Assembly (NCBI RefSeq): GCF_965641715.1 | Contig: NZ_OZ282453.1 | Reading direction: 5' to 3' (one strand) | Length of the DNA: 64,000 nt | Source: Escherichia coli | Lineage (GTDB): Bacteria > Pseudomonadota > Gammaproteobacteria > Enterobacterales > Enterobacteriaceae | Shown: piece by piece, positions 55,420-58,243 of the stretch | How the letters are laid out: the number at the start of each line of letters is the position of its first letter | How positions within the stretch are numbered: position 1 is the stretch's first letter | Position numbers and translations under genes: made by a program | Notes under the pieces: generated by a model | What the model saw: only the letters and a program-made list of their open reading frames with translations | Database searches by the model: none | Told to the model about the DNA's origin: nothing

Positions 55420-57291
55420 TTATCTACGCATGAATGCGTATTCTGATTGTGGTTGTGCGACGTAATGCCCCGGCCCGACGCATTGCAACGAGACGGCTGC
55501 CACCTCTTCGCCACGCAGATGAATATTGCTGGGAAGATCGTCCGACAGCAGTACACGCTGCGGTCGTTGTCGGGACGGTTCAGCGACCGGAACTGCCGCC
55601 AGTAATTTACGCGTATAAGGATGCTGCGGATTTTCAAAAACCGCGCGCCGTGGACCAATTTCAACAATTTGCCCGAGATACATCACCGCCACACGATGAC
55701 TAATCCGCTCTACCACAGCCATATCGTGGGAGATAAACAGATACGCAATGCCGAAATCACGCTGGAGATCGAGCAACAAGTTGATAATCTGCCCGCGAAT
55801 AGAAACATCCAGCGCCGAAACGGCTTCGTCGGCAATGATCACTTTTGGATTCAATGCCAACGCGCGAGCAATGCAGATGCGCTGGCGCTGACCGCCGGAA
55901 AACTCATGCGGGTAACGCCAGGCATGTTCAGGTAACAGGCCCACGCGCTCCAGCAACCACGCAACGCGTGCAGCCGCTTCTTTACCTGGCAATAAACCGT
56001 GTACACGCAGCGGTTCGATAATCGAATCACCGATGGTCTGACGTGGGTCCAGCGAAGCGTAAGGGTCCTGAAAAATAAACTGAATATCCCGGCGTAATGC
56101 CTGAAGTTTGCCGGGTGACAAGGTATCGATTCGCTGACCGTTAAAGATAATTTCGCCGCCCTGCGATTCGACCAGGCGCAGCAACGCCCGCCCGGTAGTG
56201 GATTTACCGCTGCCAGACTCGCCCACCAGCGATAGCGTTTCGCCAGGCCAGAGATCAAAACTGACTTTCTCAACGGCATGCACTTCCCGCGTTACGCGAT
56301 TCAACAAACCGCTGCGCAAAGGGAAACGGGTGACAAGATTACGCACCCGTAAAACAGGTTCGCCATCCACCACCGTTTTCTGCTCGATGGGGGGTTCCTG
56401 TTTCGCTGGATGTTCAAGCGATATCAATGGGAAACGTCGGGGATAATCTAACCCTTTCATCGCACCAAGTTGCGGAACAGCAGCTAACAGCGCACGGGTG
56501 TAAGGATGTTGGGGTGCATGAAAAATCTGTTCGACGGTACCCGTTTCCACCGCCTCGCCCTGATACATCACCAGTACCCGATCGGCAATCTCTGCCACCA
56601 CGCCCATATCGTGAGTGATAAAGATAACGCCCATCGACATCTCTTTTTGCAATACTTTGATTAATTGCAGGATCTGCGCCTGAATAGTGACATCCAGCGC
56701 GGTGGTTGGCTCATCGGCAATCAGCACCGCCGGGCGGCATGACAGCGCCATCGCAATCATCACTCGCTGGCGCATCCCGCCAGAGAGTTGATGCGGATAA
56801 CGTGAAAGAATGGTTTGTGCCTCCGGAATGCGTACCTGATCCAGCATCCGCTTCGCCTCGACCATCGCTTCTTCACGACTGGCGTTCTGATGCAGACGAA
56901 TTGATTCGGCAATCTGTTCACCCACAGAAAATACCGGGTTCAGCGATGTCATCGGCTCCTGAAATATCATCGCCATATCCGCACCGCGCACATGACGCAT
57001 TTGTGCAGCGCTCTGCTCGCTAAGTTCAATCACATCACGACTGCGCCGCCGCAACAGCATTTTATCGCACTGTACTAAACCGCCCGCCTGTTCTAACAGA
57101 CGCATCAATGCCAGCGCAGTCACTGACTTACCGGAGCCGGATTCGCCAACAATTGCCAGCGTCTCACCGCGTTGCAGACTAAAAGAGAGATTGCGGACCG
57201 CAGCTATTTTCTGCTGGTCCTGCATAAAGGCAATATTAAGATTTTCAACCGCCAGCACATTACCGGCATCAAGTTCATCACTGTGTGGCAA
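55420..57291 (-). CDS. gsiA: glutathione ABC transporter ATP-binding protein (two fused ABC domains), 623 aa
   Basis: ORF track 55420..57399; start set to TTG 57291 ([11 protein letters not shown]...) to match the known GsiA length, with alternative GTG at 57309; two Walker A motifs GESGSGKS; start overlaps the iaaA 3' end. Confidence 0.85.
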
Positions 57292-58243
57292 CGGTGTCCC
57301 CTTTTTCACGGTAGATACCGGTGGTTGGCGTATCGCCTGCGTAGCCCCAGGCGCGATACATTCCTTCGGTGTTAAACGGTAGCGCGACATTCCCTTCATG
57401 GTCGATAGCGATTAAGCCACCGCTACCGCCAAGCGCAGGGAGCTTTTCCATTACTACCCGCTCGCAGGCTTCCGCGAGACTTAATCCGCCGTAATCCATT
57501 AACGCGGCGATGTCATATGCCGCCAGCGCGCGGATGAAGACTTCGCCCGTGCCGGTACAAGAAACCGCCACACTGGCGTTATTGGCGTAGCATCCGGCCC
57601 CCACTAAGGGACTATCGCCAACTCGTCCGGGTAATTTATTGGTCATTCCGCCCGTGGACGTGGCTGCCGCCAGATTGCCGTCTAAATCCAACGCCACGGC
57701 CCCCACGGTGCCCATTTTCTGTTTTTCATCCAGTGGCGCACCGCTATGGTCGAGGACTGTTGCCCCTTCCTCGCGCGCTGCCATTAGTTGTTCATAACGA
57801 AAAGGCGTGGAGAAAATCTCCGGCGAGACGCGCTCCATGCCACGAGCAAACGCAAAATTTTCTGCCCCTTCGCCAATCATCATCACATGCGGGCTTTGCT
57901 CCATCACCAGCCGGGCGGCAAGAACCGGATTACGCAGATGGCTAATGCCCGCCACCGCCCCCGCTTTCAGTGTGTTGCCATCCATCACGCAGGCGTCCAG
58001 TTCATGCGTTTCATCACGCGTAAAGACAGCGCCAATTCCGGCGTTAAACAGTGGACACTCTTCCAGCAGACGCACCGCTTCCGTCACCACATCCAGCGCT
58101 CTTTCGCCCGCTTCGAGCATTTGCTGTCCGGTTTCAACAATGGCAGACAGCGCCTCAATGTAGCGTAATTCCTGTTGCAGACTCATCTGCGCGCGGCTAA
58201 TTGCACCTGCGCCACCATGAATTGCAATGACTGCTTTGCCCAT
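57278..58243 (-). CDS. iaaA: isoaspartyl dipeptidase / L-asparaginase (Ntn hydrolase), 321 aa
   Basis: ORF track; [21 protein letters not shown]...; matches E. coli IaaA. Confidence 0.95.

Follow-up and report, generated by a model that had tools for sequence, protein, structure and literature searches.

Translation start of gsiA inside the 3' end of iaaA in Escherichia coli, and a probable stop-codon loss at the origin of the overlap

The efficiency of translational coupling between neighbouring genes drops steeply with the distance between them, and tight or overlapping junctions are a hallmark of it (PMC12548453, PMC10666635). The termination-reinitiation pairs with ATGA or TGATG overlaps (Huber et al. 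2019, 2023; 2025 J Bacteriol review) resemble the junction between iaaA and gsiA of Escherichia coli in several respects: the two genes are co-directional and reported to form one operon, the downstream start codon and its Shine-Dalgarno (SD) sequence lie inside the upstream open reading frame (ORF), and stop and start fall within the footprint of one ribosome. The iaaA-gsiA junction differs from these pairs, whose overlaps are 4 or 1 nt, by an overlap of 14 nt, a UUG start codon and products that share no common complex, and its coupling is only a candidate property. In the coat-lysis junction of phages MS2 and fr, as at iaaA-gsiA, the downstream start precedes the upstream stop, such that a re-initiating ribosome must go backwards. 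The phage overlaps are however 38-50 nt long and the lysis start strictly needs coat termination, whereas at iaaA-gsiA the distance is 11 nt, the SD is strong and coupling is putative. A further class, with an 'SD in the spacer' and intergenic distances of +9 to +12 nt, comprises 203 operon pairs of E. coli (Huber et al. 2023, PMC10666635). This is the form that the iaaA-gsiA junction itself takes in Leclercia, Enterobacter, Lelliottia, Phytobacter, Superficieibacter, Pseudocitrobacter and Siccibacter; the Escherichia sequence examined here and those of Citrobacter depart from it by carrying AAA in place of TAA, which places that SD and start within iaaA.

The window analysed here is a stretch of 64,000 nt of the E. 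coli contig NZ_OZ282453.1 (assembly GCF_965641715.1). The chromosomal segment is that of an ordinary E. coli, with the order ybiW-moeBA / iaaA-gsiABCD ... artPIQMJ and with both iaaA and gsiA on the minus strand, and the gene order of the window is collinear with that of E. coli strain 14EC033. Of 5,426 complete E. coli genomes, 5,425 matched a 601-nt query spanning the junction, with identities of 96.5-99.7%, and the features at the match were iaaA and gsiA every time. The immediate surroundings of the start are also highly conserved, the 48-mer at 57268-57315 being unchanged in 5,153 of these 5,426 genomes. The features discussed below are collected in Table 1.

Table 1. Features of the iaaA-gsiA junction and its surroundings, in coordinates of the window
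Feature	Coordinates	Strand	Basis or remark
iaaA CDS (isoaspartyl/beta-aspartyl peptidase)	57278..58243	-	321 aa, ATG start; ORF list and RefSeq annotation in three E. coli genomes
iaaA stop codon TGA	57280-57278	-	Read from the sequence
gsiA CDS (glutathione ABC transporter ATPase, two ATPase domains)	55420..57291	-	623 aa plus stop, TTG start; RefSeq CDS of 1872 nt
iaaA/gsiA overlap, 14 nt (TTGCCACACAGTGA)	57278..57291	-	Sequence and RefSeq
gsiA start codon TTG (UUG)	57289..57291	-	Orthologue start codons and K-12 TetRP
Shine-Dalgarno AAGGGG, 6-nt spacer to TTG	57298..57303	-	Within iaaA codons Lys-Gly-Asp
Rejected start ATG, opening a 659-aa ORF	57397..57399	-	SD -1.5 kcal/mol; in-frame stops in orthologues
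Rejected start GTG, 629 aa	57307..57309	-	Third base of iaaA CGT (Arg312) and first two of GAA (Glu313)
Rejected start GTG (Val12), K-12 start of 2006	57256..57258	-	Start moved upstream in U00096.3; TetRP concurs
iaaA codon AAA (Lys314), inferred site of stop-codon loss	57302..57304	-	Relatives carry stop TAA there
Eight-codon IaaA tail KGDTVATQ	57281..57304	-	Covers gsiA SD, spacer and gsiA codons 1-4, in a different frame
Promoter-like site TTTACA-17-TATATT upstream of iaaA, candidate operon promoter	58322..58350	-	Consensus match; site count not above shuffles

gsiA heads the gsiABCD genes of the glutathione importer, and is followed by gsiB, gsiC and gsiD in the closest genome. The operon, which is under CysB control, is expected to be induced when sulfur is limiting or glutathione serves as the sulfur source. 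Its product contains two ABC ATPase stretches (residues 12-281 and 308-575) that match Rv1281c, and the DppD/OppD/F chains were matched as well; a GsiA-type protein with a duplicated ATPase is thus encoded beside gsiB, gsiC and gsiD, in agreement with GsiA in both architecture and gene neighbourhood. No solved structure of GsiA itself was found, Rv1281c and DppD/OppD/F being the nearest. Between the window and the K-12-like strain MT102, GsiA shows 98.9% identity and only strain-level substitutions, the structure of the gene being alike. The K-12 gene (b0829, formerly yliA; U00096.3/RefSeq) likewise has a TTG start, at K-12 position 867520, an overlap of 14 nt with iaaA (b0828) and a product of 623 aa. 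For the upstream gene, PDB chains of E. coli IaaA span residues 1-321, and an N-terminal peptide of IaaA has been detected by K-12 N-terminomics, in the part of the TRAINSPOTTER tables that was searched.

The gsiA reading frame offers several potential start codons, which are given here with their offset to the TTG: ATG 57399 (-108), ATG 57390, GTG 57309 (-18), TTG 57291 (0), and downstream of it GTG 57258 (+33) and ATG 57225 (+66). The ORF opened by the first ATG runs from 57399 to 55420 on the minus strand and encodes 659 aa. A sequence-only reading of the window had placed the start at TTG 57291, or else at GTG 57309, both in frame and both within iaaA, which it correctly took to end at 57278; its coordinates, frames and arithmetic were right (57399 - 57291 = 108 nt, or 36 codons, and 659 - 36 = 623 aa). 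The two sites fared very differently in the analyses that followed, the TTG being backed by RefSeq, by orthologues and by published profiling of initiation sites.

Amongst the in-frame candidates, TTG 57291 has by far the strongest predicted duplex with the anti-SD sequence, at -7.8 kcal/mol, the remaining candidates scoring -3.0 kcal/mol or weaker, and the corresponding gsiA SD in relatives is AAGGAG or AAGGGGG. Across the 64-kb window, 1.7% of the 6,006 NTG triplets score -7.8 kcal/mol or lower, and one or more of the six in-frame candidates would do so by chance in approximately 10% of cases; at that chance level, the SD taken alone is only suggestive of the TTG start. What makes the TTG call secure is the comparative and the published experimental evidence. 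The RefSeq/PGAP annotations of strains 14EC033, MT102 and EC42405, which span the identity range, all give gsiA the same TTG start, a CDS of 1872 nt and the 14-nt overlap, and the distance between iaaA and gsiA in the K-12 gene-pair table is likewise -14 (Huber et al. 2023, PMC10666635, supplementary file 3). UUG starts, though a minority, are normal in E. coli, where about 3% of genes have one (bioRxiv 10.1101/063800).

An alignment of GsiA orthologues had been proposed by the sequence-only reading as a means of finding the conserved start, and it favoured the TTG. A total of 80 orthologous loci were collected, 41 of them from Enterobacterales, and the E. coli start was projected onto each. 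The codon homologous to TTG 57291 was a start codon in 25 of the 41 Enterobacterales loci (TTG in seven, ATG in nine and GTG in nine), with a good SD at each; the remaining Enterobacterales loci have N-terminal indels and a start a few codons off. In 28 of the 41 loci, an in-frame stop codon was located in the 108 nt preceding the TTG position; for the last 18 nt alone, the number is 11 of the 41. Downstream of the TTG, gsiA codons 2-8 (PHSDELD) showed 29 synonymous against 12 non-synonymous codon differences from E. coli in nine orthologues without an overlap. As this synonymous excess persists where iaaA ends before gsiA, these codons are coding in the gsiA frame by themselves. In alignments with solved OppD/DppD-type ATPases, the homologous part of GsiA starts at residues 9-12, which correspond to residues 4-5 of those chains, and only a short N-terminal extension of GsiA is therefore expected.

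These comparisons bear directly on the two upstream candidates. ATG 57399 is the mechanical start of the ORF and gives the sole ATG-initiated version of gsiA, a protein of 659 aa whose gene would overlap iaaA by 122 nt. This start has next to no probability, as the sequence-only reading had also concluded: it lacks an SD (-1.5 kcal/mol), the stop codons found in 28 of the 41 loci separate it from the TTG position, its own position is ATG in just four of the 41, and it would put 36 extra residues ahead of a domain that starts at residues 4-5 in solved homologues. Nor is it used by any annotation in the three E. coli genomes inspected. GTG 57309, which the same reading had admitted as an alternative, is in frame, lies within iaaA and is no more than 18 nt from the annotated start, yet it, too, has next to no probability. 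Its SD is weak (-3.0 kcal/mol), and it owes its existence solely to the choice of CGT for Arg312 of iaaA, the equivalent position being CGC or CGG in a divergent Escherichia lineage (locus L004), in E. albertii and in three Citrobacter species (loci L004-L008). In 11 of the 41 loci, moreover, an in-frame stop lies downstream of its position.

Published profiling of initiation sites has also examined this gene. The annotated start of gsiA was shifted by -33 nt between the K-12 records U00096.2 (2006) and U00096.3 (2014), and tetracycline-inhibited ribosome profiling (TetRP) of K-12 independently picked the TTG site, with a 'diff' of 0 (Nakahigashi et al. 2016, PMC4909307, Table S3). The TetRP selection rule required a site to have no less than 10 times the reads of the old start, within a search range of 60 nt (PMC4909307). 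GTG 57309 is inside that range, yet another site was reported. ATG 57399 lies beyond it, hence that codon is excluded by comparison alone. Ribosome profiling, the other check put forward by the sequence-only reading, had thus in effect been carried out in K-12 and chose the TTG within its 60-nt range. An N-terminal peptide of GsiA was not found in the searched part of the TRAINSPOTTER N-terminomics tables, and the gsiA start has no entry in the Salmonella riboproteogenomics supplement or in that of Giess et al.

The old K-12 start, GTG 57258, is a real historical rival, which was absent from the sequence-only reading. Initiation at this codon would give a product of 612 aa and a gene that does not overlap iaaA; it was the annotated start in U00096.2, its position is GTG in 23 of the 41 Enterobacterales orthologues, and the homology to solved ABC ATPases starts at about this point. 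We nonetheless regard it as very improbable. The SD of GTG 57258 is poor (-2.3 kcal/mol), and in 15 of the 41 orthologues its position is GTA, GTT or GTC, so that the +33 position is better described as a conserved valine than as a conserved start. The seven codons ahead of it (codons 2-8) evolve as coding sequence even in the absence of an iaaA overlap, as the counts of 29 and 12 given above attest. TetRP favoured the site 33 nt upstream under its 10-fold rule, and the annotation was changed to match.

We therefore conclude with high confidence that gsiA initiates at the UUG at 57291-57289 by means of an SD located in the last codons of iaaA, generating an overlap of 14 nt between the two genes, a conclusion shown by annotation, orthologue comparison and published initiation-site profiling together. 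Both the TTG start and the overlap are already known, being part of the standard annotation of E. coli, with the overlap tabulated and the start supported by profiling.

The orthologous loci further suggest how the overlap arose. In the spacer-type genera named above, from Leclercia to Siccibacter, iaaA ends in ...IYRE-TAA, and in such TAA-type junctions the gsiA SD opens with the stop codon (TAAGGAG or TAAGGGGG), the start lying 9-13 nt past the stop. Aligned across the junction, Escherichia and Citrobacter read GAAAAAGG as against GAATAAGG in the genera with TAA, and AAA in place of TAA was found in Escherichia, represented by three species-level lineages, and in three Citrobacter species. 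The resulting tail KGDTVATQ is confined to Escherichia and Citrobacter loci; in the other 50-odd loci, more distant Enterobacterales and Burkholderiales outgroups included, the last residues of IaaA are IYR or IYRE, or the protein stops between one and five residues later. The TGA that finally closes iaaA in E. coli arises from gsiA codons Ser4-Asp5 (AGT GAT). In a separate observation, PDB entry 2zal_B, the beta subunit of IaaA, lists residues 179-315 only; these limits fit a dispensable IaaA tail, for which they are weak evidence.

From this pattern, the overlap is probably derived and recent. The ancestral iaaA would have ended in ...IYRE-TAA, with the TAA as the first bases of the gsiA SD (TAAGGAG) and some 10 nt between the stop and the gsiA start. 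A change of TAA to AAA (57304-57302) in the Escherichia/Citrobacter lineage would then have extended iaaA across the gsiA ribosome-binding site as far as the following TGA, likely converting a +10-nt junction into the 14-nt overlap and adding the eight-residue tail. This comparison covers the 80 collected loci, from which Salmonella, Klebsiella and Shigella are absent. On the simplest reading, the loss of a single stop codon would have brought an SD and start that already existed within the bounds of iaaA. The TTG codon itself is older than the overlap, since it occurs without one in Superficieibacter and Pseudocitrobacter. Other small overlaps were present amongst the loci, in the form of ATGA (Erwinia and Rahnella), TGATG or TAATG (Cedecea and relatives) and a distance of -8 (one Pantoea).

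The sequence-only reading had held that a start inside iaaA implies translational coupling of the iaaA-gsiABCD operon. This was over-stated: the 14-nt overlap is compatible with coupling of gsiA to iaaA, which is plausible, but does not prove it. The two genes are co-directional and overlapping, and iaaA and gsiABCD have been described as operonic in the literature. A promoter-like site, the candidate operon promoter of Table 1, lies upstream of iaaA, and none was found inside iaaA on the gene strand. The iaaA stop codon follows the gsiA start at a distance of 11 nt, and the resulting stop-to-start distance of -14 nt is within a ribosome footprint, although longer than the common -4, -1 and -8 classes. 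A ribosome ending iaaA would cover the gsiA start region and may hold that region unfolded, and the same ribosome may re-initiate at the SD-anchored UUG. The strength of the gsiA SD also permits initiation that is independent of iaaA, and the UUG, a weak start codon, probably limits GsiA output to a modest level. An out-of-frame AUG at the iaaA stop (TGATG), which opens a 24-codon ORF at 57278-57204, would be a nearer target for re-initiation than the UUG.

The possibility of an inhibitory RNA structure over the gsiA ribosome-binding site was also investigated. None was evident in the 110-nt segment folded, which had a minimum free energy of -34.4 kcal/mol and a z-score of -0.99 relative to shuffled sequences, and no conserved structure emerged from 19 orthologous junctions, whose consensus fold amounted to -0.11 kcal/mol with two trivial pairs. 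Given this z-score and the lack of any structure common to the 19 junctions, the variant of coupling that acts through unfolding of the RNA is without support. A 9-bp helix around the start region (57322-57314 paired with 57270-57262) was considered and rejected, as it is lost in E. albertii and Citrobacter and the consensus fold is empty. A terminator-like hairpin at 57279-57296 on the plus strand, opposite to both genes, was treated as a chance occurrence, the count of such sites being within shuffle expectation.

The overlap may alternatively be without function, with free 30S subunits initiating gsiA de novo on its own SD and the overlap being a neutral by-product of the stop mutation. This is a credible reading, to which we give substantial if tentative weight. 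The strong gsiA SD has been kept both in lineages with a gap of +9 to +13 nt and in those with the overlap, the +9 to +12-nt junction class is likely to be independently initiated according to Huber et al., no significant or conserved RNA structure masks the gsiA start, and IaaA and GsiA are not parts of a common complex, nor are they listed as such. The same loci also hold evidence to the contrary, in that most Enterobacterales loci retain a tight junction, of -14 to +13 nt, and that ATGA or TGATG/TAATG overlaps, a pattern tied to coupling, arose independently in several of the lineages compared here. A ribosome terminating 11 nt downstream must, in addition, physically sit on the gsiA start region. 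As for coupling, we consider the chances about even that gsiA translation depends measurably on translation of iaaA.

With regard to annotation, the locus illustrates errors in both directions. A rule that takes the longest ORF from an ATG places the gsiA start 36 codons too far upstream, and in the 2006 annotation of K-12 it stood 11 codons too far downstream; the right TTG start has stood in GenBank/RefSeq since U00096.3. The placement of the gsiA start within iaaA is correct and ordinary, and opens no new question. The stop-loss origin of the overlap is the only new element, and is a minor evolutionary note. If true, it would mean that the sequence of the IaaA tail is dictated by the ribosome-binding site and first codons of gsiA. 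The junction would then be a small example of how overlapping junctions arise, and the related genera would provide a natural pair of junctions in which to compare coupling or the IaaA:GsiA ratio, a possible natural control for coupling experiments.

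An out-of-frame AUG overlaps the stop codon of iaaA in the classic TGATG coupling arrangement and opens a 24-codon ORF inside gsiA. This AUG has no Shine-Dalgarno sequence. It is a by-product of the gsiA codons for Asp5-Glu6 (GAT GAA); loci that encode the two residues as GAC GAA, such as the Enterobacter locus L012, lack it. Folding of the E. coli mRNA also predicted a 9-bp helix in which the iaaA codons Thr-Gly-Ile pair with gsiA codons 8-10, enclosing the gsiA start region. Neither E. albertii nor Citrobacter keeps this helix, and the E. coli junction fold containing it was no better than those of shuffled sequences.

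In PDB entry 2zal_B the sequence of the IaaA beta-subunit ends at residue 315, an end that was compared with window positions 57281-57298; the other deposits reach residue 321. The 2zal_B end hints that the lineage-specific IaaA tail (KGDTVATQ, present only in the Escherichia and Citrobacter loci) is disordered or dispensable.

Features identified in the window
Feature	Position	Strand	Basis or context
Predicted 9-bp helix	57314-57322 with 57262-57270	minus	E. coli mRNA folding
Out-of-frame AUG	57278-57276	minus	iaaA stop
24-codon ORF	57204-57278	minus	inside gsiA
1,337-bp insertion	19863-21199		comparison with strain 14EC033; flanks 19851-19862 and 21200-21211
DDE transposase ORF (372 aa)	21151..20033	minus	Pfam DDE_Tnp_1; inside 1,337-bp insertion
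~780-bp insert	~35120-35897		comparison with strain 14EC033
Hexapeptide-repeat transferase-like ORF (183 aa)	35287..35838	plus	Pfam Hexapep; inside ~780-bp insert
RybB sRNA	35034-35112	plus	Rfam, 104 bits
naRNA4	17596-17676	minus	Rfam, 74 bits

Relative to strain 14EC033 (L084), the closest complete E. coli genome, the window harbours a 1,337-bp insertion that splits a sulfatase gene. Inverted repeats lie at its ends, and a direct target duplication of 12 bp, GGTATAGATCCC, flanks it; the insertion looks like IS186. Strain 14EC033 itself encodes two IS1 copies (40350-41047 and 42599-43296 in L084), which disrupt a PTS IIC gene and flank the sulfatase gene. The window, in which the equivalent stretch is ~21430-22940, has neither copy; the window and 14EC033 therefore carry different IS insertions within the same 3-kb stretch. 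The ~780-bp insert, missing in strain 14EC033, lies between rcdA and the RybB sRNA gene/ybjL, and is a small, strain-variable segment adjoining an sRNA gene. RybB and naRNA4 were the only Rfam matches in the 64-kb window.

Small iaaA/gsiA overlaps recur in other genera (L029, L030, L035, L011, L024-L026 and L066), namely ATGA (-4) in Erwinia and Rahnella, TGATG or TAATG (-1) in Cedecea, Enterobacter spp. and a Pluralibacter sp., and an overlap of -8 in one Pantoea. Comparison of the Burkholderiales loci L042-L080 with loci L004-L040 demonstrated that the order iaaA then gsiA is kept well outside the Enterobacterales, including in Achromobacter, Bordetella, Paraburkholderia, Cupriavidus, Variovorax and others, with gaps in these Burkholderiales loci of 6-111 nt, mostly 30-80 nt. 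So widely kept a gene order suggests that the beta-aspartyl peptidase and the importer share a long-standing functional link.
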